Virus record (IMG/VR): IMGVR_UViG_3300022745_000023
Span: 1 to 64,000 of that record
Direction: 5' to 3' (one strand)
DNA length: 64,000 nt
Source: a virus
Shown: in pieces, positions 4,921 through 40,626 of the stretch
Numbering within the stretch: the stretch's first letter is position 1
How the letters are laid out: every line of letters starts with the position of its first letter
Made by a program: the position numbers and the translations under genes
Notes under the pieces: generated by a model
Told to the model about the DNA's origin: nothing
The model's input: only the letters and a program-made list of their open reading frames with translations
The model's database searches: none

Positions 4921-4943
4921 GTCGTGACTGCACCTTACGGGCA
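4921..4943 (+). promoter_or_regulatory. Late promoter GTCGTGAC-N3-A-N3-T; +1 on the ATG
   Basis: Motif starts 22 nt before ATG 4943. Confidence 0.8.
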
Positions 4944-7900
4944 TGGATCAGTGCCCGGTAACAATGGAGCCAGTCGGCTCCAATTCTGTCTCTGCCGCGC
5001 TCGCAAGTTCGGGCTGTGAGTGGCGATATGTTCCCTTCGACCGCGAAGGCTGGGAAGGCCAGTTCCCAAACGCCTCGGTATCAACGCCTCTGGGGGAAGT
5101 GGAGATTGCCCCGGAGCGCATTGAAATGCCGGACGTTGGCCTGTCCCTGATCGGCCTGATCCGCCCTGTTCTCGAAAACCCCACCTATGCGGTAAAGCGT
5201 GACAATTCACTCGCGTTTCACCGCCCGGTGATCGGAACCGAGGGGGAAGTAAGGGGCTACGCCACCGTCAACATTCACCCCGATAGGGTGCGTGTCTATG
5301 TGGCGGAACAGCCCGAGGACTTCGACCTGCTCTCGCCCGACGCCACCGGCTCTATGGTGGCCGATGAAGATGGTGATGGCCGGGCCACCTTCAAGTCGTT
5401 CATCTACCGGCATGGGGGTAACGGGGATAACGCTCTGGGGGGTAACTCGGGCGGGGGTAACGAACCTATTGTTGCCGTTACCTCCTTCGACGTCGCCGTA
5501 ACCCTGCTGGGAATTGGCGGCGATCTGCTCAAAGCGGATCACGGCCCCATCCCCGCCGACGCGCGCTGGATCACGGTCCACCCCAACGGGGAGGGAAGCA
5601 AGGGACAGCCCATCCTCGTCGTGCCCGCTGGCGACAAATCCGGCACCTTCCGCGTGATCGGCGGCGCGGGCGGCAAACTCAACATGATGAAGCTGCGCGG
5701 AGTGAAGTCCGAGGCGGATTACAAGGCCGAGTTCGGCGCGCGCGCAAAGGCAAGGCGCGTCTCCAAGAAGGAGCAAGCCCGAAAGGACAAGGAGCTTGGA
5801 ATCGACAAAGCCAAGGCCGAAGCCCGCGATGCCATCCGCAAGCAGCGTACCGAAGCGCAGAAAGCATTCATCAAAACCGTGGCCGAGGCTATGGGGTGGG
5901 GTGATGATGATCTGAAAATGCAGACGAACGGCCTTTCGGAAACGGCGGTAAAAAAGGCGGAAGCGGCGCATCACGCTGATTTGTTGGCAAAAGCCAAGGC
6001 GGCGATTGAGACGCAGCGCAAGATCCTTGTGACTGATTTAGACAAGCGGCTCGCGGCTGGGCTGGGAACGGTCCCGCTCGATGCGCCTATGTCTGAACTG
6101 TCGGTGCAGGATTTGGACCCTGTTCGCATTCCTGATTCGTCGGGGGTTTCGCCTGATTTCAAGGCGCGGGCGGAGGCGAACGGCCTGACGCCTGAAAAGC
6201 TGGATTCTGAACAGGCCAAGGTGCAGGCGCAGGAGGCGGGGGAAGCCCCGGACCCGGCGAAGGCATTGGAGCGCGGGAAGGTGGCCGAGGCGATCCGCAA
6301 GGAGGTAGCCAAGGCGCTGCCAAAGCCTGACCTGCAAGTCTCGATTGCGGATGCCAAGAAGGCGGTGGCGCTTATCAAGGCGCGCAAGCAGCTTCTTGCG
6401 CTGGAAAAGGCGGCGCGGGAGGCGAATGCGGAGGTGGATGCCTCGACTGTCGAGCCGAAGGCCTATGTTCTGAAAGTCTCGGAAACTGGCGATGATGAAG
6501 TGGCGGCGCAGGTGGTTGATGATCTGCGGACGGCGCGCGCGGCGGCGTTTCTGGCTGGCGTGGAAGGGGCTGGCGGTGAAAACGAGGTCCAGCCGCATAT
6601 CAGCGCCGGGGCTTACAACGCGATCAACGCGCTCTCGCAAATCACTGGTGGCGCTTCGCTGATTGATCGGTCTGTCGTTGATGTGCTTGGGGTGGCCGGC
6701 GCCGCGCAAGTGGTGGCAAACCGGCTGCACGCGGAATACGGGGGCGACGCGCAGAAGGTAGCGGCTGGGCTTGCTGAATATCATGTGGCCAGCGCGCCGG
6801 AGGATCAGAAGGCGGCGCTCGATCAGGCCAAGGAATTGCAGGATGAGGCGGCGAAGATCGAAGTGGACGAGGCCAACTCGACCGCTGACTTGGCTGTCGC
6901 ATCGGCCCTGAACCGCAAGCGGCTCGAATATCTGGCCGACGCGCGCAAGGTGCTGGGGCAAACCCTCGGCCATATGGAGGCGAATGCCTCGCTTATCGCG
7001 GCGCTGGAAGCTGGCCCGCGCGATGGCCTTGAGGTGTCTCTCGGGCGAACGCCTCTTGAGTCGGCCATCAAGCAGCTTTGGGCCATCGGCTTGACCGATG
7101 ATGATTACTCGATTGAGCGCATCGACGGGAATGTTTTCGCCAAGGTCAATGCGGATGGCATGGCCAAGCTGGCCGCCCCGGTGGACAAGGAAAACCTTGA
7201 GCGGGTGAACCGCAACCTCGGCATCATGCAAGGCGATCAGGACGAAGATGATTGGCTTCCCGCTGGATTCGCCCGTAGGCCCGATCTGGGGCTTGATCTG
7301 AAACCGGGTGTGGCTCCGGGCCTGTCCGTGCCGTTTGACGCCTCTGCGCCCGATCTGGCGGCTTCTCTGCGCGCCTATATCGGCTCTCGCACCGCCGATG
7401 GCGACCGGGCGGCTGATGTGCTGTCCGATGTGCAGTCTGCATCCTTTTTCCAAAAGGTCGGGCCGGGGCGCGCCAAGGAATACATGGCCGCGCTGAATGC
7501 GGTGATCCCGACCAAGAACGGCAAGAGCCTCACGCGCGTTGAAGAACTGGCCCCGGTGTTCGACGGGTATGCCGATGAGTTTGTGCAATCCAAGTGGGGC
7601 GGCACGCGCTCGACGCTGAACAAGCAATCCTTCGAGCCGGATGCCATCGCACAAGAGGCGCTGCACCGCGCTCTGTCCGATGAACCGGCTGGGACGCTGG
7701 CTTATAAGCCGATTGGGGAACTGTCGCCCAAGGACCGGCACGCGCTGCGCGATTGGTTCTATCGAAACATTGCCAAGGAATCGCCTGAACAGGCCGAATT
7801 GCGCGCGCACGCCGAAAAGCTGGCCGAGCAGGAGCCGGAAAAGTTCACGACCGATATGTTCGGGGACACCACAGCCAACCCGGCGTGGAACGATTGGAAA

Positions 7901-10024: not shown

Positions 10025-10029
10025 GGGGA

Positions 10030-10236
10030 ATGAAAATGGCACGACAAAAGGTGGTTGAAGCAACTGATCCGGTGGAGCCGGAAAATACCGCCGATGAACT
10101 GGTGGCGCAGCCGGTCGACGCGACTGTGGACCCGGTGAGGATGGAAAAGATACAGCGCCTCTATGCGCTGGCCAATGACCCGGACCAGCAAGAAGCGTTC
10201 TTCGCGCTGCGCGATGAACTGAACGCCTCGGCATGA
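10030..10236 (+). CDS. Small acidic protein co-transcribed with the helicase
   Basis: RBS, operon packing. Confidence 0.6.
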   Translation: MKMARQKVVEATDPVEPENTADELVAQPVDATVDPVRMEKIQRLYALANDPDQQEAFFALRDELNASA

Positions 10237-11244: not shown

Positions 11245-11275
11245 TTCCCTCGTCTCGTTTGATTTGGTAGGGCGC

Positions 11276-11305
11276 AAAAAGGGCCGACCTGATGGCCGAC
11301 CCTTT
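11276..11305 (-). terminator. Intrinsic terminator
   Basis: Minus strand AAAGGGTCGGCC-ATCA-GGTCGGCCCTTTTT. Confidence 0.75.
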
Positions 11306-11343
11306 CCGTTCAAACCCTCGGCCATAAGCCGTGATTTCGAGTT

Positions 11344-11559: not shown

Positions 11560-11569
11560 GTGTTTAACT

Positions 11570-15576: not shown

Positions 15577-16028
15577 TTGCCGCTCTCCGTGTTGCTGGCG
15601 CTAAGGGTGTGGGTCGCCTGAATGATCGGTTCGGCGCAAAGGGCGAGAAGCACAAGCGAGCCGGCGAGGATCACCAAGGGCAGAACCTTGTATTTGAAGA
15701 CCCGGCCAAGGGTCGGAAGCGGGGCGGCGCATTCCGTGCAGGCGGAAAAACCGGAATCATCCTCGGGCATGATCGGCTCATCGCGGCGCGGCGTGGCCAA
15801 ATCGACCATCGCAGGGCTGAAAGCCTCGGCCTCGATTTCGTTGTTGCTGGCGCTTCTAGCCTTTGCGCTAAGGTCGGTCATAGCGTCCACGATTCGACGC
15901 ACGGTGCGGCGGCTGATCCCGCAATCAAGCGCGATCTGACTGATGGAGTCGCCGTACTTATGGCAAAGCAAGACGGTAGCGTCGAGTTCAGCCTTGCTAT
16001 CGAACTTTCCCGTTGTGGTATTGGCCAT
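15573..16028 (-). CDS. N-terminal HTH plus C-terminal TM protein; first gene of the leftward early operon
   Basis: SISQIALDCGISRRTVRRIV; VLPLVILAGSLVLLALCA. Confidence 0.7.
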   Translation of the reverse strand: MANTTTGKFDSKAELDATVLLCHKYGDSISQIALDCGISRRTVRRIVDAMTDLSAKARSASNNEIEAEAFSPAMVDLATPRRDEPIMPEDDSGFSACTECAAPLPTLGRVFKYKVLPLVILAGSLVLLALCAEPIIQATHTLSASNTESGK

Positions 16029-16133: not shown

Positions 16134-16156
16134 GTCGTGACAAAAGAATGCGAGCA
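16134..16156 (+). promoter_or_regulatory. Late promoter; +1 on the ATG
   Basis: GTCGTGAC-AAA-A-GAA-T, 22 nt before ATG 16156. Confidence 0.8.
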
Positions 16157-17055
16157 TGAATTTGACGCTGGCCCCTGATGATGAGGTTTCGCTGCTGGAT
16201 CGCGTTCCCGCGTTCCTGTCAGTGTCGGACCTGCTGAAAGCTACTCCGGTGACGGAGGGGGATAACCGCTTCGTGTATTTCGAGGCGTCGAATGAGTCTG
16301 TGGATCAGCAAGGCGAAGTGGTGCTCGCCAAGGCCCTTGCGGAGTCCGCCGCCTATTACCTGCAATTCGGCAACCTCGACATTGACCACTACACCCAGAT
16401 TGGCGCGAAGCTGGGCATTCCCAATTACGAACTGTTCGAGATTGGCCGTCCTATCGATGTTCGCTTGGATCGTGGCTCGACCTTCGTAAAGGCGCAGGTC
16501 TATCGTGGCGAAGGGCCGGCTGCTGAACAGGCCAACGGCTTTTGGTCGTCGGTAACGGACCTCTCGCCGCCTAAGCGCTGGTTCCCGTCTGTGGGTGGCA
16601 AGGTTATCTCCAAGGCCATCACCATTGACCCGGCCACCAAGGCGAAGCGCGCCATTATCGAAAAGGTGCGCTGGTCGAATGTCGGCCTGTCGCGTATGCC
16701 GGTTAATGCGAATTTGGCGACCGTTTCAACGGTCCCGTTCGGCGCCCTGACCAAGTCGCTGTGCGCCGAGGGCTTTGATTTCGCGAAAGCGATGGAGGCC
16801 GGTTACGGCACAGACGCGGCAACGCTGTCAGGTGCGGGCGCGCTGCGCCGGCAGTCGCTTGAGCCGAACCTGCTTTCGTATTGGGATTTTCGGGATGGCC
16901 TCGCGGACCTGATCCGCAAGGGCAAGGTCAGTGGGGGAAAGCCTGCTGAATTGGTAAGGGTCGCTCAAGACCACTTCGGCATGTCTCCCGACATTGCCGC
17001 TGCCTCGGTTGAGCGGTTTTTGAGCGATCTTTCGCAACACAGGAGGAAGCAATGA
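16156..17055 (+). CDS. Prohead (capsid maturation) protease
   Basis: EASNESVDQQGE, DIDH, SVGG, PVN motifs; position before scaffold and capsid. Confidence 0.82.
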   Translation: MNLTLAPDDEVSLLDRVPAFLSVSDLLKATPVTEGDNRFVYFEASNESVDQQGEVVLAKALAESAAYYLQFGNLDIDHYTQIGAKLGIPNYELFEIGRPIDVRLDRGSTFVKAQVYRGEGPAAEQANGFWSSVTDLSPPKRWFPSVGGKVISKAITIDPATKAKRAIIEKVRWSNVGLSRMPVNANLATVSTVPFGALTKSLCAEGFDFAKAMEAGYGTDAATLSGAGALRRQSLEPNLLSYWDFRDGLADLIRKGKVSGGKPAELVRVAQDHFGMSPDIAAASVERFLSDLSQHRRKQ

Positions 17056-20231: not shown

Positions 20232-20537
20232 ATGCCCCTTTCGACTAAAGTTCTCCGCCGCCTTGCCGTCGCTCTCGGCAACAAGGCTGCTGCGGACGCC
20301 ATCGCCGCCGCAATCGACGCGCAGGGTTCCGGCCCGGCTGCCAAGGTTACGGCCATCGGCACCACTGCGGCCCTTCCTGCTGCTGCCTGTGCCGGTGGTG
20401 CAACGCCTGCCGCAACCGACGTCAACACGGCCATCAACACCGTCACGGCTGCTGCCGAAGCCCGCCTCGATGGTGTCGAAGGCAAGGTGGACGCGATCAT
20501 CGCTGCCCTCAAGGGCGCGAACCTGATGACGTCGTAA
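20232..20537 (+). CDS. Head fibre/decoration-like protein
   Basis: Ala-rich, ends KVDAIIAALKGANLM. Confidence 0.7.
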   Translation: MPLSTKVLRRLAVALGNKAAADAIAAAIDAQGSGPAAKVTAIGTTAALPAAACAGGATPAATDVNTAINTVTAAAEARLDGVEGKVDAIIAALKGANLMTS

Positions 20538-20566
20538 CGGCGGCGTCTGACTGCTGAAATGTATCT

Positions 20567-20596
20567 CCGGGGAAGCCAGCCTTCCCCGGTTCTTTT
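20567..20596 (+). terminator. Intrinsic terminator
   Basis: CCGGGGAAG-CCAGC-CTTCCCCGG-TTCTTTT. Confidence 0.75.
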
Positions 20597-20612
20597 ATGG
20601 GGAGAAAAACCA

Positions 20613-20942
20613 ATGCCCTACGTCATTTGCTCCATTCGCACCGCTGTCGAAGCCGCTCCGCTCACGATCAGCGACATTGCTTTCGAGCGCGACGGTGAGG
20701 TCATCGTCTCGGTCGATCCGGTCGATGATGTCGAAGCAGAGCGCTTTGCGTCGATTCCCGGCTATGAACTGTCGGACGTGAAGCCTTCTGATGCGCCCGA
20801 AACGCCTGCCGAAAAGCCTGCCGAAAAGCGCCGTGGCGGTCGCCCGCCGAGGAATCCCGCTGCCACCGAAGCCGGGTCGAATGAGGGCGAGAACGCTGGC
20901 GAAGGTTCGGAAAAGCAGCCCGAAGGTAGCGAGCAGGTGTAA
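20613..20942 (+). CDS. Small head-associated hypothetical protein
   Basis: GGAG RBS, start MPYVIC. Confidence 0.7.
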   Translation: MPYVICSIRTAVEAAPLTISDIAFERDGEVIVSVDPVDDVEAERFASIPGYELSDVKPSDAPETPAEKPAEKRRGGRPPRNPAATEAGSNEGENAGEGSEKQPEGSEQV

Positions 20943-20970
20943 GCCTTTCCGTCTCATCTTTCTTCTCTGG

Positions 20971-21019
20971 GGTCGTGACACCACCATGCCGTTGATGGCT
21001 GGGGTGTCACGGCCTTTTT
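20971..21019 (+). terminator. Terminator hairpin whose 5' arm contains a late promoter (20972)
   Basis: GGTCGTGACACC...GGTGTCACGGCC-TTTTT. Confidence 0.65.
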
Positions 21020-21037
21020 GTAGGGCAAGGTCTAAAG

Positions 21038-21781
21038 ATGAGCTTTTTGAGCAGGATTTTCGCCGCCGTCAGGGACCAGATTATTTGGGCTGGGTTCGAC
21101 TTGCAGCGCCCGGACGGGGCTGCCGCTCAGGCGGTTGTTCTGATCGACCCAAGCACCAATGACGCTTATTCGGCGGCAAGTTCCGCGCAGAACAAGAACC
21201 GCTTGGCGGTTGCCACGTCTTACGTGGTCGTCACGAACTTTCTTGGCGCTGCTGCCGGGGACGTTCTGACCTGCACGCAGATCATCGATGCGTCGGGCGA
21301 TACGCCGACCACGCTTGCGACCGTCTGGCGCAATCAGACCACGAACCTCGATCTCGCCAACGCTCCGGACGCGGCGAACATTCAGGTACTGGGCTCGGGC
21401 GCTATCACTGACGCGCAGCTTCGCGCCTCGGCGGTTCCCGTGACCATCACTTCTGCTGCCGAGGTTGAGGTCAAAAATGACGGCGGTTCTCCGCTGCCCG
21501 TTCTGTCCGTTTCGCTCAATTACACCGACAAGTCGGTATCGGCGCTTTCCAGTGCGCAGGCTGCCGGGACAAGCGCAGTGATCGGCGTCAACGCGGCACG
21601 CAAGGCGGTGGTGTTCAACCCTCCCGTTGACTGCACGCTGTCCATTGGGAGCGGCGTGGCGACCGGCATTCCGCTCTACGCGAACATCCCCAACGTCTTT
21701 GTCGGCCCCGAGTGCCCGTCGAACGCCCTGTTTATCGCTGGCCTGTCTGCGGGCCAGTCTGTCGTGATCTGGGAGGCTTGA
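21038..21781 (+). CDS. Virion structural protein (beta-rich)
   Basis: Late operon; A/T/V-rich. Confidence 0.7.
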   Translation: MSFLSRIFAAVRDQIIWAGFDLQRPDGAAAQAVVLIDPSTNDAYSAASSAQNKNRLAVATSYVVVTNFLGAAAGDVLTCTQIIDASGDTPTTLATVWRNQTTNLDLANAPDAANIQVLGSGAITDAQLRASAVPVTITSAAEVEVKNDGGSPLPVLSVSLNYTDKSVSALSSAQAAGTSAVIGVNAARKAVVFNPPVDCTLSIGSGVATGIPLYANIPNVFVGPECPSNALFIAGLSAGQSVVIWEA

Positions 21782-21784
21782 GCA

Positions 21785-24700
21785 ATGTCGATCCGCAATT
21801 TTGCTGCTGCGATCCGCGCTCAGAAAGTCGCCGCTGATGCATCTTCTGCTGCGGCTTCTTCTGCTGCCACTGCCGCTGGTGCTGCCACCGCCGCCACGCA
21901 GGCCAAGAATGATTCACTGACTGCCTCGCAAGCTGCTGCTACCAGTGCCACAAATGCCTCTGCCAGTGCGTCGACGGCAGCAACCAGCGCCACTAGTGCC
22001 AGCGCCAGCGCGGGCAATGCCTCTGCCAGTGCGACCGCAGCAAGCGGCAGCGCAACCAGCGCCGCTAACTCCGCCGCCACTGCCACCACACAGGCGACAA
22101 ACGCATCGTCCAGCGCCACAAACGCCGCTACCAGTGGGACTAATGCGGCTGCCAGCGCGACAACCGCAACCACGCAAGCAACTAGCGCGGCGACTAGCGC
22201 AACCAACGCAGCGACCAGCGCTACCACTGCCACCACGCAAGCGACCAACGCCGCCACCAGTGCCACAAATGCCGCAACCAGCGCCGCACAGGCCCTGCAA
22301 GCAGCCACGCAGTCGCAGGGCTTTGCCAACACGCTCAACACCAACCCGACTGTTCTGCCGTTTGAAGTGACCGCGATCAGCGGCGGCGTCGGCACTGGCA
22401 CTGGCGGCACGGACGGTACTTATAACCTTGGCGTCACGGGTGGTCCTGCGGGATTTCAGGCCACGGTTATGATCAGTGGCGGCAAGATCGCTTCCTACGC
22501 CATCATCAATCCCGGCATTTCGGCCAGCAACACTGCGCCTACGCTTTCGCTTTCGGGCGTGACGGGCCTGACCGGTGCGACCACGCCGACCGCAACCGTG
22601 GGCACGATCCCGGTCAACCGCGTATTCACCGCGCCCGATGCGACCGGCACCTATGAACTGGCATGGATCAACAACGCCGGATCGCTTTCGCAGTTTCCGA
22701 CGACCGGGACGCAATTCCAGAAGTATTACAAAGCTTCAATTGACGCGCTTTTTTCCAATCTGAACAGCACGGAAACGATTGGGCGTTCTGTCAACCCGAT
22801 TTCCGGTTTTTCAACGACGACTGGCACTTATGCTTTTGCCAATGCCATCGCGCTAAACGGCACGATCACGGCCATCCGTGTTTACGGCTTTGGTTCGGGC
22901 ACGATTAAGGTGCGCCGCTTCACACTTTCCGGCACGACGATGACGCAAGTCGGCAGCGACACGAATGTAGCGATTTCTGTCGGGCTGAACACGTATTCTG
23001 TCAACATCGCGGTCAATGCTGGGGAGTATATCGGCTTTTATACCCCTGCAAGCTGCATTGGGTATACCAGTACCACCGGAGACAGCGGCGGATATTATTT
23101 CAGTTCCTCCGACAGCACAAGCTACAATGATACGTCTGGTCCGCGCACTGCGGCTCGGCTTGAAATCGGGTTTGACCTGACTGAACCCTACGTCACAAAA
23201 ACCCGCATTCAGGGCATTGAGAGCAATGTCACCACAGCTCAAGCAGGCGCAACCAGTGCTAACGCAGGGCTTGGCGATCTAGGCAATGCGTCTTCGATCA
23301 CGGTCGAAGACCACGCAGCGACGACGCAGTTTGCTAGCACCGCATTTGGGGGCTGGTCTGGCGCGGTGCTGCTTTCAAGCGCGGCGGTCGGAACGGTTAT
23401 CAAGCGAATTGGGTTTGACAACTTTTACGTTGATGCAACTGCCACCAAGGTCAATCTGAAAATTTACTTGCGGCCTGATGCGGAAACAAACGCACCGCCA
23501 ACCAACTGCACGCTCGTGTTCAGTCAAGATTACGCGTTGGCCGCGCTCGGGCTAACTGCCGGGTCAACAAACCGCCAAACGATCCTTTGCCAGTTTCCGT
23601 CTAATTTCACCAAAACGGCAGGCTATCACCTAGCGTTTGAGTTGCAAGCGCAGAACGGAAGTAGCGCCAAGGTTGCCTCGTCGATTGGTTATCTGTCAGA
23701 TACCACTTCCACAGCTTCAGAACGTGGTTGGTATTACGGCACGACCAGTACCAGCACTTACACGGCAATTGCATCGCCTAACCGAATTGCGGTTCGCGTT
23801 GCTCGCGATGGTTACGTGCCGTTCAATAAAACGGACCTTCTCGCTTCGGCCAGTTCAACTGTAACGGTTTCGGGCAATCAGGTCACGGTATCCGGCACGC
23901 TTCGCAAGAACGGTGTGGATTACCCCTATTCTGGCACGACAACGCTAACACTCGCCGCTTCTGGCACTGAGCGCATGGACAAGCTGGTTTTGGCACGGTC
24001 CACGCTGGCCCTCAGCGCGGTTGCCGGCAGTCAGCGCACGGCGCAATTGGACTCGCTTGAATGGCAGGGCGCAACCCCGGCTGATAGCATTGTTGTCGCT
24101 CGCGCAAGGGTGGGCAATACGAATGTCCAAGCCGCAAGCTGCGCCAACTTCCGGGGTCTGATCAAGGTCGGAACCGAGGGCGAAATGGCCATGCAGATCG
24201 ACCGCAACAGGCGTATCCTGCGCGGTCTGATCGGTAAGGCAACGCGCGGGGGAACAATCAAGCTGGGCGGATACGGCGACAGTATCACTGCAATCCAATC
24301 GTCAACCCCGCCCTATACCGCGAACGGCACCATGCGGGATCGCGGCCTGACGTTCTTGGCAAATTATCCTGCCGACACTCAGGCTTTGCTCACGCTGTAC
24401 GACACCGGAGACGGTGCTGGCGCGGTTCACACCCGGCTTGGCTGGAACTGGATCATCAAGTCCGCGCTTGAAAAGCTAGGTGGCACGGTCACGTACAACA
24501 ACTATGGCATCGGCGGGACGACCAGCCAAAATACGACAGACAACGGTTTGTATGCGTCTCGGATTGCGGTTCCGCTGGCTGATGCGCTCGATGTGGTAGT
24601 GATCGCATTTGGCATGAATGAACGGGGCCAGTCCTACACTTACGCAAACATCGTCAACATGATTGGCCAGTTTCAGGCGGTGGGCACGGCCTGCATTGTC

Positions 24701-24964
24701 ATGGGATGCACGAGGCCCAACGCCAACCAGTCGGTGTCAGCTTGGCGCTACACCAATGATGCGCTTGAAACTGCGGCGATGGATGCTGGCGCGGCATACG
24801 TTTCGACTGTGGCCATTTCCGACGACCGTAATCTCGGTGGGATCGGTGTGCCCGCCGAAGCTCTTGCCTCTGCCAATACGATCAGCGGCGGCAACAACCA
24901 CCCCGGCATCTATGAACTAACCCAATACGGCAACTCTGCTGTGATCCAGTTGGGCTTGGTCTGA
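21785..24964 (+). CDS. Virion fibre/appendage protein with A/T/S coiled stalk and C-terminal SGNH hydrolase
   Basis: ATTATTQATNAATS repeats; GDSIT, NYGIGG, FGMNE, NHP blocks. Confidence 0.8.
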   Translation: MSIRNFAAAIRAQKVAADASSAAASSAATAAGAATAATQAKNDSLTASQAAATSATNASASASTAATSATSASASAGNASASATAASGSATSAANSAATATTQATNASSSATNAATSGTNAAASATTATTQATSAATSATNAATSATTATTQATNAATSATNAATSAAQALQAATQSQGFANTLNTNPTVLPFEVTAISGGVGTGTGGTDGTYNLGVTGGPAGFQATVMISGGKIASYAIINPGISASNTAPTLSLSGVTGLTGATTPTATVGTIPVNRVFTAPDATGTYELAWINNAGSLSQFPTTGTQFQKYYKASIDALFSNLNSTETIGRSVNPISGFSTTTGTYAFANAIALNGTITAIRVYGFGSGTIKVRRFTLSGTTMTQVGSDTNVAISVGLNTYSVNIAVNAGEYIGFYTPASCIGYTSTTGDSGGYYFSSSDSTSYNDTSGPRTAARLEIGFDLTEPYVTKTRIQGIESNVTTAQAGATSANAGLGDLGNASSITVEDHAATTQFASTAFGGWSGAVLLSSAAVGTVIKRIGFDNFYVDATATKVNLKIYLRPDAETNAPPTNCTLVFSQDYALAALGLTAGSTNRQTILCQFPSNFTKTAGYHLAFELQAQNGSSAKVASSIGYLSDTTSTASERGWYYGTTSTSTYTAIASPNRIAVRVARDGYVPFNKTDLLASASSTVTVSGNQVTVSGTLRKNGVDYPYSGTTTLTLAASGTERMDKLVLARSTLALSAVAGSQRTAQLDSLEWQGATPADSIVVARARVGNTNVQAASCANFRGLIKVGTEGEMAMQIDRNRRILRGLIGKATRGGTIKLGGYGDSITAIQSSTPPYTANGTMRDRGLTFLANYPADTQALLTLYDTGDGAGAVHTRLGWNWIIKSALEKLGGTVTYNNYGIGGTTSQNTTDNGLYASRIAVPLADALDVVVIAFGMNERGQSYTYANIVNMIGQFQAVGTACIVMGCTRPNANQSVSAWRYTNDALETAAMDAGAAYVSTVAISDDRNLGGIGVPAEALASANTISGGNNHPGIYELTQYGNSAVIQLGLV

Positions 24965-25061
24965 TGAACGCGCCCAACCACATAGACCCGAGCCGCGACA
25001 TGGGGCGTATGGAGGCCGGTCGTGTTGCTGGTGGCTTGATGATTAGGGTTGTCACTTCTCA

Positions 25062-25107
25062 GTCGTGATGGAACATTCCGGTCACCAACTGCACGGTGAC
25101 CGGAATG
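25062..25107 (+). promoter_or_regulatory. Late promoter (GTCGTGAT variant) plus perfect 13-bp hairpin over the ATG
   Basis: CATTCCGGTCACC / GGTGACCGGAATG. Confidence 0.72.
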
Positions 25108-25881
25108 CCACTTCCCACTAGCACTTCCCTGTTTTCTCGCACTGCGGATGTCGCGGCACTCCGAGCCCGTCTTGCGCCGATTCCTTACGTCTCGGTCGAC
25201 GCAATGTCGGACGACGAATTGTGGGCGAATCTTGTTGCGGCGGAGGCGGAGGCCTCCCGTGCGCTGCGCGTGCTGTTCGAGCCGACCGTCGTCATCCCGG
25301 AGGATGCGCCGCAGTCCGAGATTGACGCGCTGGTCGCGTCGAACACCAAGTTCATGCAGGAATCGCCCTACGACTACGACCCGTCCGATTGGACGATGGA
25401 CGTGTGGGGCTTCATCTTGCTTCGGCAAAAGCCGGTGATCAGCGTGGACTCGATGAAGTTCACCTATCCGACTCCGGCAAGTGACGTCCTCATCGTGCCG
25501 AGCAACTGGATTCGCCTCGACAAGAAGTATGGGCACCTGCGCGTCGTCCCGACCGGGACGCTGATGGGCATGGGGCCGCTGTCGTCCTATCTGCTGCAGG
25601 CGATGTCGTCTGGCCGAATCATCCCGAACATGGTCCACATTCGCTATACGGCGGGCCTCTCGAACGTGGCCGAGGATTGGCCCGATCTGGTGTCGCTGGT
25701 GAAGCGCATGGCGTCGATGAAGATTCTCAAGCAAGCGTTTGTGCCGCAATCCGGCTCGATTTCGGCGGATGGCCTGTCGCAATCATCCAGCCTTGACCTC
25801 GAAAAAATGCAGGACGCCATCGACAAGGATCTGAATGATCTGCGCGATTCGATCCATGGCGTTCGCCTCGGGGTGTTTTGA
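25105..25881 (+). CDS. Head-tail adaptor/neck protein
   Basis: IRYTAG, S.SISADGLSQS; position. Confidence 0.7.
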   Translation: MPLPTSTSLFSRTADVAALRARLAPIPYVSVDAMSDDELWANLVAAEAEASRALRVLFEPTVVIPEDAPQSEIDALVASNTKFMQESPYDYDPSDWTMDVWGFILLRQKPVISVDSMKFTYPTPASDVLIVPSNWIRLDKKYGHLRVVPTGTLMGMGPLSSYLLQAMSSGRIIPNMVHIRYTAGLSNVAEDWPDLVSLVKRMASMKILKQAFVPQSGSISADGLSQSSSLDLEKMQDAIDKDLNDLRDSIHGVRLGVF

Positions 25882-26510
25882 TGCAGTTGTCCCCGGCCCG
25901 CTTTAACGCGCACCTCGCCAAAATGGGGCAGTCCTTTTCGTGGCGTCGCGGTTACGCCTGCCCCTGCATCAATCCCTCGTCTGGCCAGCCCAAGGCGAAT
26001 TGCCGCCAGTGCAAGGGCAAGGGGCGCCTGTGGGGTGATGCGTCGGATGGCTGGGCCGGCGTTGTCAGCCAAAGCCGCCTGCGGAACTATGCCGCGTTCG
26101 GTATCTGGGACGCGGATGACATTCTCCTGTCGATCCCTTCCGATTCGCCGCTCTATGCCATGGGGCAATTCGACCGCATTGAAGCGATGAACCGCACGGA
26201 GCCGTTCTCGATTAATTTCGTGCGCGGCCTGAATGATTTGGTGCGCTTCGATGTGGTGTCGCTGAATCGCGCCTTCTATCTGGACGCGGGCGAGAACATC
26301 GTGGAATTGCCGCTGCCGACCATCAACCCCAACGGCACGATCACTTGGGCGGCGGGCGGGCCGCCGGCACAAGCAACATTCTCCCTCACTGGTCGTCGCC
26401 ATCCCTCCTATTACTGCTATATGGAGTTGCCGACCGACCGCCCGATCCATTCGGGGGCGCTGCTCCCGCGCAAGGTTGTCCTGCGCCGCTTCGATCTTTT
26501 CGGCAAATGA
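25878..26510 (+). CDS. Neck/head-closure protein with Zn-finger
   Basis: ACPC...CRQCKGKG. Confidence 0.7.
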   Translation: MMQLSPARFNAHLAKMGQSFSWRRGYACPCINPSSGQPKANCRQCKGKGRLWGDASDGWAGVVSQSRLRNYAAFGIWDADDILLSIPSDSPLYAMGQFDRIEAMNRTEPFSINFVRGLNDLVRFDVVSLNRAFYLDAGENIVELPLPTINPNGTITWAAGGPPAQATFSLTGRRHPSYYCYMELPTDRPIHSGALLPRKVVLRRFDLFGK

Positions 26511-27358
26511 GCGACTACAAGCTATCTGTTGACCTCGGCCCGCTGCTGGGTGCGAACTCCGCCATTGCGGAGGCGATTTTCCCGCTCGTCAGTCAGGCAG
26601 TTGAAGCTGTGGCCGAGGAAGGCGCGTTCCGCTGGAAGCAGGCCATCATGAAGGCGAAGCTATGGCAGGGCGAAAAGGCGCCCTATGTCGAGTCGATTTC
26701 ATGGAAGATGGTCAACCCGTTTGAGGCGGAAATTTCCACCGACTACAAGCTGGCTGGTGAAATTGAGACGGGCCGCCCGGCCAAAGACCTCAAGAAGATG
26801 CTGCTCACCTCCAAGAAGGTGCGCGTCACAAAGAGCGGCACTCGCTACCTCATTATTCCGTTCCGCCACAACACGCCGGGGAATGATGCGCTTGCCCCGG
26901 CGATGCCGGATGGCGTCTATTCCGCTGCAAAGGCGCTCTCGCCGTCCTATGTCGTGGGGAGCGGGCTTCGGGTGTCTGGGCAGGCTAACCCGTCCCTGTT
27001 GGCGCGGTGGTCGAAGGTTGGAGCAAGCCGTGTGGCGCGCGGAGCTGGGCCGGCTGGGATGCTGGTCCATCAAGCCAAATATGCGTGGGGCGACCGCCTG
27101 CCCGCCGGGATGGCCCCGAAATTGAAGCCCCACCACAAGACGGACCCCTACGCGGGGATGGTGCGCTTCGATACCTCTGCGGGCAAGGCCAAGTCCTCGT
27201 CATATCTCATATTTCGCGTCATGTCCGAGAAATCGTCTGGCTGGATCGTCGGCCCGCGCCCCGGCCTGTATCTGGCGAAAGAGGTTGCGGACAGCCTCCA
27301 AGGCGTTCTGGATGAAGCCGTGGGGCAGGCTGTCACACTAAAGGCGCTTCGACTCTAA
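26507..27358 (+). CDS. Neck/tail completion protein
   Basis: YLIIPFRH, FRVMSEKSSGW; ATGA overlap. Confidence 0.65.
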   Translation: MSDYKLSVDLGPLLGANSAIAEAIFPLVSQAVEAVAEEGAFRWKQAIMKAKLWQGEKAPYVESISWKMVNPFEAEISTDYKLAGEIETGRPAKDLKKMLLTSKKVRVTKSGTRYLIIPFRHNTPGNDALAPAMPDGVYSAAKALSPSYVVGSGLRVSGQANPSLLARWSKVGASRVARGAGPAGMLVHQAKYAWGDRLPAGMAPKLKPHHKTDPYAGMVRFDTSAGKAKSSSYLIFRVMSEKSSGWIVGPRPGLYLAKEVADSLQGVLDEAVGQAVTLKALRL

Positions 27359-27360
27359 AG

Positions 27361-27400
27361 GTCGTGACAGAAGAATGTGGACCATGATTTTGATGGTCCA
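27361..27400 (+). promoter_or_regulatory. Late promoter plus hairpin over the ATG
   Basis: GTCGTGAC-AGA-A-GAA-T; ATG at +23; TGGACCAT/ATGGTCCA. Confidence 0.75.
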
Positions 27401-28220
27401 GCCTCTTGCTTCGGGCAACGCTCTGCGGGTGATTATGGCCCCGCCGACCAGTGCGACGCGCATCCGTCTTTTGCGTAAGAGCGCATTGCCCTTTTCTGGG
27501 TTTGATGACTCGGACGCGGTTCTGATCGCGGATGGCATGGACAAGGCCGTCACGGATTACGCCGGCCTGCTTAATGGGGAAGCCGTCTGGTACGGCGCCT
27601 TCTATTTGATCGGGGGCGAATGGGTCGCCGCTACCCCAAAGCAGGGGACGCCAAGCGCTACCTTCGTGGATATCGGCCCGAATGTGCTCTCCATTGTGCG
27701 GGACCGCCTTGAACTCGGCTTGAAGGTCTATGTGGATCGCGGCGTTCTGGTGCATGAGCGCGGCTTCATCCCAACGATGGTCGCCTCTCCGCAAGTCGAG
27801 GAAGCGCCGCTTCCGCTGGTGACGGTCCATCTTGCGAATGATGCGCCGGATATGCGCGCTGTTGGCGAGGTGGTCGGAAGCGATGTATTCGATCCGGTGT
27901 CGGGCAAGTGGCTGTCGTTCGAGGGCGGTATCAGCAAGACCGACCTGACGATTGTTGCTTGGAGCCTCAATTCGGATGAGCGCATCACTTTGCGCGAGTG
28001 CATTGGCGCCATCCTGCGCGCGAACTTCCCGGTATTCGACTATGCCGGCCTTCTGCTGGTGTCGTGGAACTGCACCGATATGGAGGACTTCGAGCGATAT
28101 CAGGTTCCGATGTATCAGGTGGTCTACCAATTTTCTTGCTACGCGCCATCGGCAATTTCAGCGCCAAGCGATGCAATCAGCGAAGTCACAGTAACCAACT
28201 TGGGGAATCAAAATGGCTAA
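27384..28220 (+). CDS. Tail terminator-like protein
   Basis: Position before the sheath; PLVTVHL. Confidence 0.6.
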   Translation: MILMVQPLASGNALRVIMAPPTSATRIRLLRKSALPFSGFDDSDAVLIADGMDKAVTDYAGLLNGEAVWYGAFYLIGGEWVAATPKQGTPSATFVDIGPNVLSIVRDRLELGLKVYVDRGVLVHERGFIPTMVASPQVEEAPLPLVTVHLANDAPDMRAVGEVVGSDVFDPVSGKWLSFEGGISKTDLTIVAWSLNSDERITLRECIGAILRANFPVFDYAGLLLVSWNCTDMEDFERYQVPMYQVVYQFSCYAPSAISAPSDAISEVTVTNLGNQNG

Positions 28221-28473
28221 GGCACCTACCTCTCTTGACGATCAAACCGATGCTTCGGCTCTCGATGCTTCGGCTCCTGACGCACCGACTCCCGATGCGC
28301 CGGATGCGTTTCCCCTCGCCATCGACGAGTTCTGCGCTCGCCTGTCCGTCTCCGACCGGCGCGTTGAACTGATTGGCGCTTTTCATGCGGTCGAAAAGGC
28401 TGCCGGGCGCATCAAGGATCTCGAATCCGCTTTCGCTGAACGCTTCGCTGCGTTCGTCAATCAGCCCGCGTAA
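28213..28473 (+). CDS. Small pre-sheath protein
   Basis: ORF, synteny. Confidence 0.65.
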   Translation: MAKAPTSLDDQTDASALDASAPDAPTPDAPDAFPLAIDEFCARLSVSDRRVELIGAFHAVEKAAGRIKDLESAFAERFAAFVNQPA

Positions 28474-28488
28474 TGGGAGGTTAAACCA

Positions 28489-30201
28489 ATGGCTGTTTTC
28501 TTCAACGGTCGGCTGTGGACCAGCCCGGCCACCATGTCCAAGGTCGATGATTCGGCCATGTATAACGCCAATGCCAGCACTGGCAATGTGCTGGCCATCA
28601 TTGGCAAGTCGTCGGGTGGCAAGCCCTTTTCTGCCTTGCACTTCGGATCGCCCGATGAAGCCAAGGCCGCTGGCATCGACGGCGAATCGCTCAAGGCAAT
28701 TGCGCTGGCGTTCGATCCCTCGCCGCAGGTGCCCGGTCCCTCGGAAGTCGTGTTCATCCGTGTCAATCCGGCTGTGCAGGCAGCGCTTGCGCTCAAGGAT
28801 GCTGCGAATGCGACGGTCATCAATCTGACCAGCACGGACTACGGCCTGCGCACCAACCAAATCAAGGTCAAGATCGAAGCTGGTTCCACGACCGGAAAGA
28901 AGGTCACTACCGCGCTCGGCAACGACTACTATTCCGCCGACAATGTGGCGCGTAACGCCTTCTCGATCCAGTATTCGGGCGCAGCGACCACCGCCAACAT
29001 CAGCGTGTCAAACTCCGCCGTCACGCTTGTTGCTGATGCGGCGACCACGGTCATCGACCTCAATGCTTTCCAGACCATCGGGCAGGTGGTGGACCGCATC
29101 AATGCGGTGGCTGGCTTCGCCGCCTCGGTTCTGGATGGCAACTCGGAAAAGCCTGCCCTGAACGGCCTTGACTCGTTGCAGGCCGTGGACTGCAAGAGCG
29201 CCGCCGTCACGGTCACGGCAAACTTGCAAGCCATCATCGACTGGCTGAACAGTGCGGGCGAGGGTTTTGTCACCGCTGCGCGCCCGGCCAATGTCGGCAC
29301 GCTGCCGGTAAATGCCCCCTATACCTATCTGGCCGGTGGGTCTGATGGCACGGTGACCAACACCGAATGGCAGAGCGCGTTCGATGTGCTGCAAACGGTC
29401 GATGTGCAATGGCTCGTCCCCATTTCGGCCAGCCCTTCGATCTGGGCCATGGCTGACACTCATGCCAGCTACATGAGCAACATCGGGCGGATGGAGCGCC
29501 GGGTGATCGTTGGTGATGCGACCGGCGTGACCGATGATGCAGCGATTGCGGCAGCGAAGCTGCTGAACAGCGACCGCACCTCGTACACGCATCTTGGCAT
29601 CTACGACTACGACGCCAACGGCAAGCTGACGCTCTACCCGGCCTATCTGGCGGCGGCGGCGATTGCTGGCGGCTTTGCCGGTTCCAACCCCGGCACGCCG
29701 ATGACCAACAAGGCGCTCAAGATCCGTGGCATCGAGCGCAACTTGCGCAACCCGACCGACACCGACCGGCTTATCAACGGCGGCGTTCTCTGCATCGAGA
29801 ACACCGCCAAGGGCTTCAAGGTCGTGAAGTCGATCACCACTTGGCTCGTCAACCAGAATTACAACCGCGTCGAGGTTTCGACCGGCGTTGCGACCGACTA
29901 TGTGTCGCGTAGCGTCCGCGACAAGCTGGATGATCTGCGCGGGGCCAAGGGCAGCCCGACGCTGCTGTCGGAAGCGGTCAGCCGCACCGATACGATCCTC
30001 AAGGAATTGGCCAAGAGCGAGGCGCAGGGCGGTATGGGCGTGATTGTTGGTGATGCCACCAACCCGGCCTACAAGAACATCACCGCCACGCTTTCCGGTG
30101 ATGTGGTGACTGTTTCGTTCGAGTGCAGTCCGGTGATCCCGGCTAACTATATCGCCGTCACCATCCACACCGTTCCCTATTCGGGGTCTGCCTCGGCCTG
30201 A
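28489..30201 (+). CDS. Tail sheath protein
   Basis: 570 aa; LAGGSDG, L..GV..IE, PVIPANYI. Confidence 0.92.
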   Translation: MAVFFNGRLWTSPATMSKVDDSAMYNANASTGNVLAIIGKSSGGKPFSALHFGSPDEAKAAGIDGESLKAIALAFDPSPQVPGPSEVVFIRVNPAVQAALALKDAANATVINLTSTDYGLRTNQIKVKIEAGSTTGKKVTTALGNDYYSADNVARNAFSIQYSGAATTANISVSNSAVTLVADAATTVIDLNAFQTIGQVVDRINAVAGFAASVLDGNSEKPALNGLDSLQAVDCKSAAVTVTANLQAIIDWLNSAGEGFVTAARPANVGTLPVNAPYTYLAGGSDGTVTNTEWQSAFDVLQTVDVQWLVPISASPSIWAMADTHASYMSNIGRMERRVIVGDATGVTDDAAIAAAKLLNSDRTSYTHLGIYDYDANGKLTLYPAYLAAAAIAGGFAGSNPGTPMTNKALKIRGIERNLRNPTDTDRLINGGVLCIENTAKGFKVVKSITTWLVNQNYNRVEVSTGVATDYVSRSVRDKLDDLRGAKGSPTLLSEAVSRTDTILKELAKSEAQGGMGVIVGDATNPAYKNITATLSGDVVTVSFECSPVIPANYIAVTIHTVPYSGSASA

Positions 30202-30222
30202 TTTCGCCGCTGGCCTGTAAGG

Positions 30223-30258
30223 AAGGGGGTCGCGCTTTGGTGCGGCCCCTTTTCGTTT
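30223..30258 (+). terminator. Intrinsic terminator after the sheath
   Basis: AAGGGGGTCGC..GCGGCCCCTTTT. Confidence 0.8.
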
Positions 30259-30262
30259 GCAA

Positions 30263-30285
30263 GTCGTGACTGCAATCTTTGGGCA
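30263..30285 (+). promoter_or_regulatory. Late promoter for tube/lysis genes
   Basis: GTCGTGAC-TGC-A-ATC-T, A at +22, directly after the terminator. Confidence 0.8.
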
Positions 30286-30313
30286 TCGCATTTTCTCAAA
30301 CCGCGAGGTTCAA

Positions 30314-30739
30314 ATGGCATCTACCAATCTCAAGACGCGCAGCGGCAACCGCGTCGTGGTGTCGTTCGATGGCAAGCAGATTGGCCTTGTCCAGTCCGTT
30401 CGCATGAACGATGACTATGGCCCGGAACCGGCTTCCGGCATCGGGGACATTCATGTTCAGGAATACGTGCCGACCATGGCGCGGCATTCGCTTTCGGTGT
30501 CCAGCATGGTCCTCTTTGTCGGCGCAATGCGCGAGGCCGGGCTGACTGCTGAAAACGGCGATGCTGTCCTGCAAGGGCTTGTTTTCGACATTACCGTTTT
30601 CTCGAAGGATGACGGCTCACAACTTCGCAAGTACGTCGGCTGCTCCTATGCGTCCGGCGATGTGGAAGTGAATAAGCACGCAATCATCATGGCGAACGGC
30701 CAGTTCAACGCGCTCGATGTGAGCGGCACCGGCCTGTAA
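30314..30739 (+). CDS. Tail tube protein
   Basis: 141 aa after the sheath; GAGG RBS. Confidence 0.85.
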   Translation: MASTNLKTRSGNRVVVSFDGKQIGLVQSVRMNDDYGPEPASGIGDIHVQEYVPTMARHSLSVSSMVLFVGAMREAGLTAENGDAVLQGLVFDITVFSKDDGSQLRKYVGCSYASGDVEVNKHAIIMANGQFNALDVSGTGL

Positions 30740-32211: not shown

Positions 32212-32215
32212 TTGA

Positions 32216-39431: not shown

Positions 39432-39440
39432 TTAAGGCTG

Positions 39441-39463
39441 GTCGTGACTGCAATGTGCCGTCA
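39441..39463 (+). promoter_or_regulatory. Late promoter; +1 on the ATG
   Basis: GTCGTGAC-TGC-A-ATG-T, 22 nt before ATG 39463. Confidence 0.8.
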
Positions 39464-40626
39464 TGGCACCTCCTTCCCAAAAAGGCGACGTTCGCCCGAT
39501 TAGCTTTGTCCTGCATGACATGGCGCGCGGCACCGCGCCGGTCGAGGTTCCGCTTGTCATTCGCCCGGAGGATTTGACCCGCACCGATACGTCTCGGCTT
39601 TCTGTCGTGCAAACGCTGGGTGGCGCTTGGGCTGACAGCTTCGGCCCCGGCATCCCCATGATCCAAATTGCCGGTCATACGGGTTGGGGGGCTGGCGACC
39701 GGCCCGATGGGCTGGCCGAGTTTCAAAAGCTGTATTCAACGGTATTCGATCAATGGCACAAGCTGCGCGCCAAGGCGGTGGAAGCCGGCCATGATCCTGA
39801 CAAGGTTCGCCTGATTTTTGCGGATGCGCTGGACGACTTCACTTGGGTTGTGGCTCCGCAAAACTTCATCCTCAAGCGCAATCGCTCGCGCCCCTTGCTG
39901 GCGCAATATCAAATCAACCTGTCGTTTATCTCGGACGATGTGGCTGAAACGAAGCAAGCCCTTGCGGCGCTCAAGGCGGCGAAATCGAACGCGCTGTCGG
40001 TGTCCGTGAAGCAAACGGCTCTCGAATCGCTGGCTGCATCGATCAAGAAAATCACAAGCGCAATCAACGCGAAAATCTCTAACTTCCTTGGGCCGCTGAA
40101 AAATGGTGTGGCTTCCTTGATGAAGCTGACAAGCACCGCTTTGAAGGCGGTCAACTCCATCCTGACTTCGGTGACAAGCGTTGCTCGAACTGTTGCTAAT
40201 GCCGTTATTGGCATAGCGACTGGCTTGGCGCGCGTGGCGGCAAATGTCTCGCAAATGGTGCATTCGATCATCGCTCTGCCCATGGCGATCAAAGCGCAGT
40301 TCATGCGCGTTGCCTCGGCGTTCGAGAATGTGTTCTGCATCCTGTCGAACATTTTTTCGCCGCGCAAGATGCTGCCGAATTATTCGGACCTCTATGGTGC
40401 CTCGCTCTGCTCGTCCACCAGCGGGGGAAGCGCTATTTCGCCCTACGACACGACCAATCCATTCCCTGATCTGGTGCCGTTGAGCAAGCCGCCTGTGTCG
40501 GTGTCGAGCGATGCAAGCGCTTCTCTCTCCAAGCTGGCGCAAGCCGATCCCGCGCTGGCCCCTATGTCGTCCACTGAACTTTCGGCGCACCTCGACGCGG
40601 TGAATAAGGGAGTCGTTTTGGCGTGA
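39463..40626 (+). CDS. Tail tube initiator-like baseplate protein
   Basis: QTLGGAWADSFG..I.IAG.TG; helical C-terminus. Confidence 0.65.
   Translation: MAPPSQKGDVRPISFVLHDMARGTAPVEVPLVIRPEDLTRTDTSRLSVVQTLGGAWADSFGPGIPMIQIAGHTGWGAGDRPDGLAEFQKLYSTVFDQWHKLRAKAVEAGHDPDKVRLIFADALDDFTWVVAPQNFILKRNRSRPLLAQYQINLSFISDDVAETKQALAALKAAKSNALSVSVKQTALESLAASIKKITSAINAKISNFLGPLKNGVASLMKLTSTALKAVNSILTSVTSVARTVANAVIGIATGLARVAANVSQMVHSIIALPMAIKAQFMRVASAFENVFCILSNIFSPRKMLPNYSDLYGASLCSSTSGGSAISPYDTTNPFPDLVPLSKPPVSVSSDASASLSKLAQADPALAPMSSTELSAHLDAVNKGVVLA

Follow-up and report, generated by a model that had tools for sequence, protein, structure and literature searches.

The first 64,000 bases of the 89.6-kb virus record IMGVR_UViG_3300022745_000023 of IMG/VR (98% complete according to CheckV), referred to here as the window, carry five inverted repeats that straddle the predicted transcription starts (+1) of internal promoters. 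It appears that one of these repeats, a 13-bp hairpin at 25074-25107 in front of a tail-fibre gene, and another, a terminator at 20971-21019, are placed such that only RNA begun at the gene's own promoter would escape them, whereas the other three hairpins, which lie at genes predicted to begin at the very 5' end of their RNA, are probably incidental. We give this explanation a probability of about 0.6, an estimate that is joint with two further propositions, namely that the window represents the left 64 kb of a ~90-kb myovirus resembling the phages PHB04 and Dolphis, and that the promoter class in question drives the structural genes and some others of this phage. The DNA itself is our basis for inferring where +1 lies, that read-through RNA exists, and that translation or termination is affected.

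In the mechanism that we propose, RNA reading through from a gene for a 1059-amino-acid protein would form the 13-bp stem and so sequester both the Shine-Dalgarno (SD) sequence GGUGA and the AUG of the tail-fibre gene; RNA from 25084 would keep 3 nucleotides (nt) of the 5' arm and have its SD and AUG free of that stem. At 20971-21019, transcripts from upstream would stop at the terminator, and RNA begun within the terminator loop would be unable to form the stem and would continue into the gene at 21038. For the leaderless genes (4943, 27384 and 39463), promoter dependence would come from the difference between a 5'-terminal AUG and an internal AUG that lacks an SD, and not from hairpins.

The first of these arrangements is known from T4 and appears here in another lineage of phages, with a promoter class that is new for it. 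The soc gene of T4 has its late promoter in the 5' arm of a hairpin. In T4 e and I-TevI, a stem in long (early or middle) RNA hides the ribosome binding site, the DNA of its 5' strand holds a late promoter, and the late RNA, being without this strand, is translated (PMC3014915). The 25074-25107 element is like e and I-TevI in having its -10 region and discriminator as the 5' arm and the SD and AUG in the 3' arm. It is unlike them in its promoter class, GTCGTGAC-N3-A-N3-T as against TATAAATA in T4, in its phage lineage, in the gene served, which encodes a tail-fibre family protein rather than a lysis or homing function, and in extent, the layout being predicted at about one fifth of the SD-led promoters of the phage family here, as against a few special genes in T4. 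If this reading is correct, the T4 device for promoter-dependent translation arose separately in an unrelated lineage of myoviruses that uses it at about that one fifth of its SD-led promoters, and the three devices (masked SDs, terminators that spare RNA begun within them, and leaderless starts) would explain how neighbouring expression units are kept apart in a tightly packed, one-directional genome. Dolphis (from Pseudomonas putida) and PHB04 (from Bordetella bronchiseptica) are cultured phages that carry the same elements, which makes the idea directly testable.

Promoter geometry and the five inverted repeats

The promoters belong to a class that is conserved in the phage family, GTCGTGAC-N3-A-N3-T, with a box of the form GTCGTGA(C/T). 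The motif GTCGTGA strongly favours the coding strand in this genome and 10 relatives (G+C content 45-68%), and an A at position 12 together with a T at position 16 accompanies 84 of the 110 unique coding-strand copies in six complete genomes. Position 23 is an A in 57 of these 84 promoters, with C/A the most frequent pair at 22/23, and among promoters with leaders there is a pyrimidine at 22 in 38 of 56 and a purine at 23 in 37 of 56. Many boxes sit immediately 3' of terminator T-runs, which argues that the box acts as a DNA rather than an RNA signal, and taking A12 and T16 as -11 and -7 places +1 at position 23. The predicted layout, which is well supported, thus comprises a box at -22 to -15, a minimal -10 element (A at -11, T at -7), a G+C-rich discriminator, and a +1 that is the A found 23 nt from the first G. 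The ATG of an open reading frame (ORF) of at least 50 codons, being the earliest start in that frame, lies exactly at +1 (position 23 or 24) in 47 of 105 non-redundant promoters, a count in which one call (20995) is false, and ~45% of promoters would accordingly be counted as leaderless. Position 23 or 24 is also the start of the coding sequences given in GenBank for the PHB04 protease, gp005 and helicase and for the Dolphis portal, gp6 and protease, and start codons in this PHB04/Dolphis-like family may be placed from the promoter when genomes are annotated. Counts of exact box matches are lower bounds on the number of promoters, since boxes with one mismatch occur. One such box, TTCGTGAC, is found with A12, T16 and an ATG at position 23, directly after a terminator, at the orthologue of the window's helicase gene in the relative G001 (~27830-27857; L035).

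The first-pass annotation had described five inverted repeats at promoters of the window, and all of them, on the + strand, were found exactly as written. The longest is the perfect 13-bp stem with an 8-nt loop at 25074-25086 / 25095-25107 (CATTCCGGTCACC / GGTGACCGGAATG), belonging to the box at 25062 with its predicted +1 at 25084, where RNA begun at +1 would keep 3 of the 13 nt of the 5' arm; the piece 25070-25111 folds with -25.9 kcal/mol (z -7.1). The terminator consists of a 12-bp stem with one G.U pair at 20971-20982 / 21003-21014 (GGTCGTGACACC / GGTGTCACGGCC), followed by TTTTT at 21015-21019; its box begins at 20972, its predicted +1 (20994/5) lies in the loop, none of its 5' arm would be kept, and 20965-21026 folds with -36.4 kcal/mol (z -5.9). 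A perfect 8-bp stem at 27378-27385 / 27393-27400 (TGGACCAT / ATGGTCCA) goes with the box at 27361 and +1 at 27384 (2 of 8 nt kept; 27374-27404, -12.3 kcal/mol, z -3.7), a bulged stem at 4935-4943 / 4952-4961 (TTACGGGCA / TGCCCgGTAA) with the box at 4921 and +1 at 4943 (1 of 9 nt kept; 4931-4965, -13.0 kcal/mol, z -2.7), and a 5-bp stem at 39455-39459 / 39465-39469 (GTGCC / GGCAC) with the box at 39441 and +1 at 39463 (0 of 5 nt kept; 39451-39473, -7.6 kcal/mol, z -2.7). All five z-scores are for pieces that were picked after the fact. The promoter model was derived independently, and under it all five repeats have the predicted +1 (base 23 or 24, counted from the first G) between their arms, so that the further claim that RNA begun at +1 lacks the 5' arm holds as well. 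Three of the ten hairpin-type repeats of at least 10 nt in the window are located at these promoters. Between the stop codons of the upstream genes and the 5' arms there are 20-110 nt, and terminating ribosomes should therefore not open the stems. The five repeats are of three kinds: a stem that would mask SD and AUG (25074), a promoter within a terminator (20971), and stems at leaderless starts (4935, 27378 and 39455).

The 13-bp stem, the terminator and SD-led promoters at large

The promoter at 25062-25084 (+ strand) fits the family model GTCGTGA(C/T)-N3-A-N3-T, with the box GTCGTGAT at 25062-25069, A(-11) at 25073, T(-7) at 25077, and, at position 23, a predicted +1 A25084 preceded by C. 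The 5' arm of the stem is made of the end of the -10 hexamer, the discriminator and the first 3 nt to be transcribed; the 3' arm takes in the SD GGTGA (25095-25099), an alternative GTG at 25096 and the ATG at 25105 of the tail-fibre family gene 25105-25881, which has a leader of 21 nt from the predicted +1. Upstream lies the gene for the 1059-amino-acid protein, in the same orientation, and no stem with a T-run was seen in 24965-25061. Opening the start region of the 25105 gene costs 19.3 kcal/mol in predicted read-through RNA, 11.1 kcal/mol in RNA begun at +1, and 11.4 kcal/mol when the upstream part is swapped for that of other promoters, the native sequence lying above every swap. The proposal that this stem masks the start in read-through RNA only is thus borne out for the predicted RNAs, the site having all sequence features of the e and I-TevI design, including a stable stem over SD and AUG in the long RNA, which the stems at 4935, 27378 and 39455 do not have. 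The 25105 gene is promoter-proximal only in the window phage and in L026; in the other relatives its homologue forms the C-terminal portion of a longer tail-fibre gene or directly follows the preceding gene. The stand-alone orthologue in L026 has an analogous SD/discriminator stem of unrelated sequence.

The surrounding tail-fibre locus, 21785-25881, looks remodelled. The 258-amino-acid product of 25105-25881 (phrog_772) matches the C-terminal ~255 amino acids of a frame that extends upstream in several relatives, and in the window it stands alone, as a gene served by a promoter of its own, behind the 1059-amino-acid protein, which carries a GDSL lipase/esterase domain and for which tblastn gave no match in the relatives.

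At 20971-21019 it is the promoter box itself, GTCGTGAC at 20972-20979, that forms the 5' arm, with A(-11) at 20983 and T(-7) at 20987, as had been described; the G+C-rich stem is extended by an inner helix and is directly followed by TTTTT, which is the sequence pattern of an intrinsic terminator. In its 12-bp stem and the five T it is like other intrinsic (Rho-independent) terminators, and it is unlike ordinary ones in that its 5' arm is a promoter box and its predicted start is in the loop; an element so built should stop incoming RNA polymerase and spare RNA begun within it. To our knowledge no class of elements with this layout has been named. The promoter serves the gene 21038-21781, with a third-position G+C (GC3) of 0.75. 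An ATG at 20995 (position 24) was tried as a leaderless start and rejected, the 56-codon frame 20995-21162 having a GC3 of 0.45, which is non-coding, and overlapping the real gene; an ATG at +1 is thus not always a start codon. The same layout was seen at 17347 in G002, at 42264 in G003 and, upstream of the baseplate J gene, at 23642 in Dolphis. These recurrences were judged by eye and give no frequency, the scripted detector having missed known cases; a simple terminator scan caught only the inner part of the 20971 stem, its loop limit being 8 nt, and a consensus scan was non-discriminating (28 found versus 21.8 expected).

How unusual such stems are can be judged from random truncation of five of these genomes, which removes at least 5, 6, 8 and 10 perfect local-hairpin pairs at 10.4, 3.2, 0.29 and 0.07% of positions, respectively. 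Truncation at the predicted +1 sites of the window removes 10 pairs at 25084, 6 at 27384, and 5 each at 4943 and 39463; only the 25074 stem and the terminator stand out alone, and the stems at 4935, 39455 and 27378 are individually unremarkable. In the test of the cost of opening start regions, likewise, 20972 is the only window promoter besides 25062 to stand out. Taken over the genome, at least 5 pairs are lost at 4 of 12 promoters, as against 1.2 expected (p = 0.03), and over the 72 non-redundant promoters at 16 (p = 0.002), with at least 8 pairs lost at three (p = 0.001 against the genome-wide background and 0.013 against gene-start neighbourhoods). The excess is positional, with a frequency of ~0.2 at offsets 0 to +8 and of 0.06-0.10 elsewhere.

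The family trend was followed by comparing the cost of opening the stretch that spans -13 to +5 relative to the start codon (for leaderless genes, the AUG up to +5) in read-through RNA with 60 nt upstream of +1, in RNA begun at +1, and in chimeras bearing the upstream part of another promoter. The energies come from thermodynamic folding of 120-nt pieces, which leaves out co-transcriptional folding and ribosome traffic. For SD-led promoters (n=47) the means are 10.07, 6.08 and 7.86 kcal/mol, respectively, native exceeding swapped with p = 5.5e-4. Ordinary internal genes turned out to be equally masked, so that the swap test alone is insufficient, and two control sets, in which genes were cut off at pseudo +1 sites chosen to match the leader lengths, were therefore added; the gene calls in these sets are crude. 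The release on truncation is 0.95 kcal/mol for 90 operon-internal genes (native-over-swapped gain -0.03) and 0.75 kcal/mol for 150 box-less genes preceded by 47 nt or more of same-strand non-coding sequence, compared with 3.99 kcal/mol for real SD-led promoters (p = 7.5e-6 and 4.8e-7 against the two controls). A release of at least 8 kcal/mol is found at 9 of the 47 promoters versus 2 of 90 and 2 of 150 controls (Fisher p = 4.9e-5). In these folding models, then, the release is specific to real +1 sites, and the family as a whole supports unmasking as a trend that reaches about one fifth of SD-led promoters. Each of the nine strong cases concerns a different gene, and together they come from five phages; eight of them are without a separate upstream terminator. 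In these cases the 5' arm is drawn from the non-conserved positions of the promoter and the 3' arm contains the SD (GGAGG, GAGGUGA, AGGGG and others). PHB04 gp001 provides a further independent SD/discriminator pairing. When promoters were divided by the presence of an upstream terminator, the SD-led gain was 2.83 kcal/mol without one versus 0.6 with one and the leaderless class showed the reverse, the overall difference not being significant.

Leaderless starts

The three remaining repeats lie at promoters on the + strand whose +1 is predicted to be the first base of a start codon: 4921-4961 (box 4921-4928, A 4932, T 4936), where A4943 begins the first ATG of a 1693-amino-acid helicase ORF; 27361-27400 (box 27361-27368, A 27372, T 27376), where A27384 begins the gene 27384-28220; and 39441-39469 (box 39441-39448, A 39452, T 39456), where A39463 begins the tail-tube-initiator gene. 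None of the three has an SD, the upstream 22 nt being the promoter itself, in which no GGAG-like element was seen, and the N-termini of orthologues back 27384 (pattern M-I-x-x...P-L-A-x-G-N-A-L-R) and 39463 as starts. A comparable layout is that of the Thermus phages YS40 and Lalka27a, whose transcripts mostly lack a leader, the RNA beginning with the A or G of the start codon, and whose late promoters have a distinct consensus (bioRxiv 10.64898/2026.04.20.719267). The genes at 4943, 27384 and 39463 share this layout as far as their predicted 5' ends go, and the phages considered here are unlike the Thermus phages in that the cultured relatives infect Bordetella and Pseudomonas and that only ~45% of the promoters are leaderless.

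Masking of these starts in read-through RNA is at the level of chance, with 4.0 kcal/mol at 4921, 4.0 at 27361 and 4.4 at 39441, versus 3.5, 2.9 and 3.7 kcal/mol, respectively, with swapped upstream parts. The leaderless class as a whole (n=47) gives 4.27 kcal/mol in read-through RNA, 1.15 in RNA begun at +1 and 3.33 with swapped parts, so that native exceeds swapped with p = 0.04 (p = 0.03 in another test); 188 random ATGs of the same genomes are masked by 4.03 kcal/mol, which is no different (p = 0.49). The idea of comparing folded long and +1 RNAs, which came from the first-pass annotation, therefore favours masking at 25062 (19.3 vs 11.1 kcal/mol) and among SD-led promoters of the family, and speaks against it at 4921, 27361 and 39441. 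Two broader claims are not supported by this comparison: that the hairpin at 4935 keeps the helicase silent in read-through from an early operon, for a leaderless start masked by 4.0 versus 3.5 kcal/mol, and that such hairpins are used systematically, three of the four start-codon cases cited for it being leaderless and masked no more than swapped controls and random ATGs.

Conservation, judged by swapping discriminators among orthologous leaderless promoters, gave a divided answer. The 27378 stem is not conserved among 14 orthologues (p = 0.10), and no stem conservation was detected in the protease group (n=9, p = 0.54). In the tube-initiator group, which includes 39463 (n=9), native promoters fold with -10.7 versus -8.8 kcal/mol for swapped ones (permutation p = 0.004); the signal is a pairing of the discriminator with codons 3-6 that comes mainly from two phages, the window phage ranking third of nine. 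Conservation of the stems in homologues is thus seen in the tube-initiator group and not in that of 27384. The N-terminus of the helicase has no homologue in most relatives; the helicases of PHB04, G001 and G005 all start at +1, two of them (PHB04 and G001) with unrelated 5-6-bp stems around the ATG, and the PHB04 helicase-start stretch is no more stable than shuffled sequence (z about 0).

A different pairing was observed between the box and the start context. At 39441 the box itself can form an alternative 8-bp pairing, with two G.U, with GUCAUGGC (39460-39467), in which all 8 of 8 bases pair. More generally, when G.U is allowed, the box GUCGUGAC can pair at 7 or more of its 8 bases with the start context (-3 to +5) at 13 of 47 leaderless promoters, versus 8.6% of all ATGs (p = 1e-4), the paired contexts being of the type GUCAUGAC or GUCAUGGC (also at G002 86708, G004 40877, G005 34911 and L008 407). 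A sequence preference at the transcription start, and not selection for pairing, could be the reason.

Competing explanations and the phage context

Several results weigh against control by promoter of origin at 25074 and 20971, or against our treatment of the other repeats. All +1 positions are derived from promoter geometry, and the 5' ends are predictions in the window phage and its relatives alike. Ordinary SD-led internal genes are masked by 9.65 kcal/mol, about equal to the 10.07 kcal/mol of promoter-proximal genes in read-through RNA, so that the average effect in the folding models is an unusually open +1 RNA and not an unusually closed read-through RNA. Even at 25105, the start in +1 RNA is predicted to cost ~11 kcal/mol through unremarkable downstream pairing (z -0.3), a gain of ~8 kcal/mol that is not all-or-none. 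The 25062 promoter is missing from most orthologues, in which the homologue of the gene is the C-terminal part of a longer gene. No relative close enough to show nucleotide-level covariation of the 13-bp stem was found: megablast against phage records gave no nucleotide-level near-identical record, the sheath proteins of IMG/VR relatives are at most 67% identical in amino acids, and the best identity of the 25105 protein in metagenomes is 49%. The co-variation in the tube-initiator group (p = 0.004), finally, may mean that to call every stem at a leaderless site incidental is too strong.

The main rival explanation, which is compatible with control by promoter of origin, holds that the stems work chiefly for the upstream transcript, as a terminator, 3'-end stabiliser or processing site, that they overlap promoters on account of the compactness of the genome, and that masking of the SD is a by-product. 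We consider this unlikely, although terminator-like stems with U-tracts do lie across +1 at 20971-21019, in G002 and G003, and in Dolphis; eight of the nine strongest stems also stand where there is no separate upstream terminator, and with leaders of 16-40 nt a 3' arm extending past +1 is almost bound to overlap the SD. Against it, the 13-bp stem and most strong cases are without a U tract, box-less intergenic controls have no comparable stems at matched positions (2 of 150), and the 5' arms come from free positions of the promoter and complement the SD (GGAGG, GGUGA) in several unrelated genes. The more sweeping proposal, which the first-pass annotation favoured and which we hold to be rather doubtful, is that hairpins across +1 are systematic at all these promoters, leaderless ones included, silencing start codons in read-through RNA (for example that of the helicase behind the early operon) and setting timing and stoichiometry. 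It can draw on straddling stems of at least 5 bp at 16 of 72 promoters against a background of ~10%, peaking at +1 to +8, on the marginal native-over-swapped signal of the leaderless class (p = 0.03-0.04), on the tube-initiator orthologues, on the box pairing at 13 of 47 leaderless starts, and on three helicase orthologues that each have a small stem around the ATG. It has to contend with leaderless masking that equals that of random ATGs, with three cited sites that equal their swapped controls, with two of three orthologue groups in which there is no conservation, and with the ~80% of promoters at which such a stem is missing; poor use would in any case be expected of an internal AUG that lacks an SD.

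That all of the stems, including the 13-bp one, are functionless, by chance or as a recombination remnant at a mosaic junction in the tail-fibre locus, seems improbable. Three of the five are at chance level, the 25062 promoter and its stem are found at a breakpoint of gene architecture unlike that of most relatives, and a perfect stem that has no support from covariation fits a recent origin; but only ~7e-4 of background positions lose 10 or more pairs of a perfect stem, the family-level excess holds against three kinds of control (p = 5e-5 to 5e-7), and an analogous stem of unrelated sequence stands at the orthologous stand-alone gene of L026. We find it very hard to credit that the 13-bp palindrome is the operator of a dimeric repressor covering -10 to +24 of the 25062 promoter. 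A perfect inverted repeat over +1 is where a repressor usually has its operator, but arms of 13 bp set 8 bp apart are unusually long for one, the straddling stems at other promoters are unrelated in sequence, the half-site has no other copy in the window at up to 2 mismatches, and matches to its 9-mers occur at control rates and in coding DNA. The preferred explanation, control by promoter of origin at 25074 and 20971, might be extended to the whole genome: the variable positions of the promoter (spacer, -10 and discriminator), and sometimes the GTCGTGAC box, would be tuned gene by gene to serve as anti-SD, anti-AUG or terminator arms, such that each late cistron would be expressed only from RNA of its own promoter, by leaderless starts, SD unmasking and self-escaping terminators. 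This extension is tentative and, in our judgement, unlikely.

The genes of the window point to a contractile-tail phage, with a sheath, tube initiator, baseplate J, DUF4815 protein and head maturation protease, and also encode the SF2 helicase of 1693 amino acids and an integrase. The closest cultured relatives are Bordetella phage PHB04 (Phabquatrovirus), whose sheath protein is 63.5% identical in amino acids, and the Pseudomonas phages Dolphis, Jeremy and Touem01. Among public sequencing runs queried with 20501-30500 of the window, none that hold this stretch is recorded as RNA; only two runs, both DNA metagenomes, hold it, and one of these, labelled freshwater metagenome and covering it in full, is probably the source sample of the record. 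A full-text literature search for the motif GTCGTGAC gave unrelated primer sequences only, and a search for transcription studies of PHB04 or Phabquatrovirus found none.

For comparison, three other promoters on the + strand of the window have no straddling pairs. At 16134-16156 the head maturation protease gene has a leaderless start (ATG 16156); little + strand read-through would be expected there, the region just upstream being apparently coded on the minus strand according to the ORF list. The promoter at 30263-30316 follows a terminator-like hairpin with a T run and has a 29-nt leader, an SD and the tail-tube ATG at 30314, and that at 43432-43475 has a 19-nt leader and an ATG at 43473, with no perfect straddling stem. 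In 17 of the 84 promoters an ATG occupies positions 15-17, at the end of the -10 hexamer, with the real ATG 8 nt later, often as ATGnnnnnATGA (for example at 16148-16159 of the window and in many relatives). Read-through RNA would there contain a mini-ORF of three codons, with its UGA overlapping the real AUG, possibly a site of termination and reinitiation, which would be missing from RNA begun at +1.

Beyond the window, the promoter 64911 (64904-64977) has a long stem in which the box region GGGGCGGUCGUGAC pairs with codons 3-8, enclosing +1, SD and AUG, and the predicted cost of opening is 11.3 kcal/mol in read-through RNA versus 4.7 kcal/mol in +1 RNA. The only other perfect 13-bp inverted repeat of the window, at 58402-58434 (AAGCCGCGAGGTG / CACCTCGCGGCTT), has no link to a GTCGTGAC promoter; it is preceded by an A run on the + strand and thus reads as an intrinsic terminator of the minus strand. 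The profile of Sigma70 region 2 (PF04542) has no match in the genome. Two ORFs have a helix-turn-helix of the Sigma70 region 4 type (PF08281), one beyond the window at 88767-88901 (+), with 30 bits and over the cut-off, and one in the window at 15894-15968 (-), with 13.8 bits, and either may encode the factor that recognises the GTCGTGAC box.

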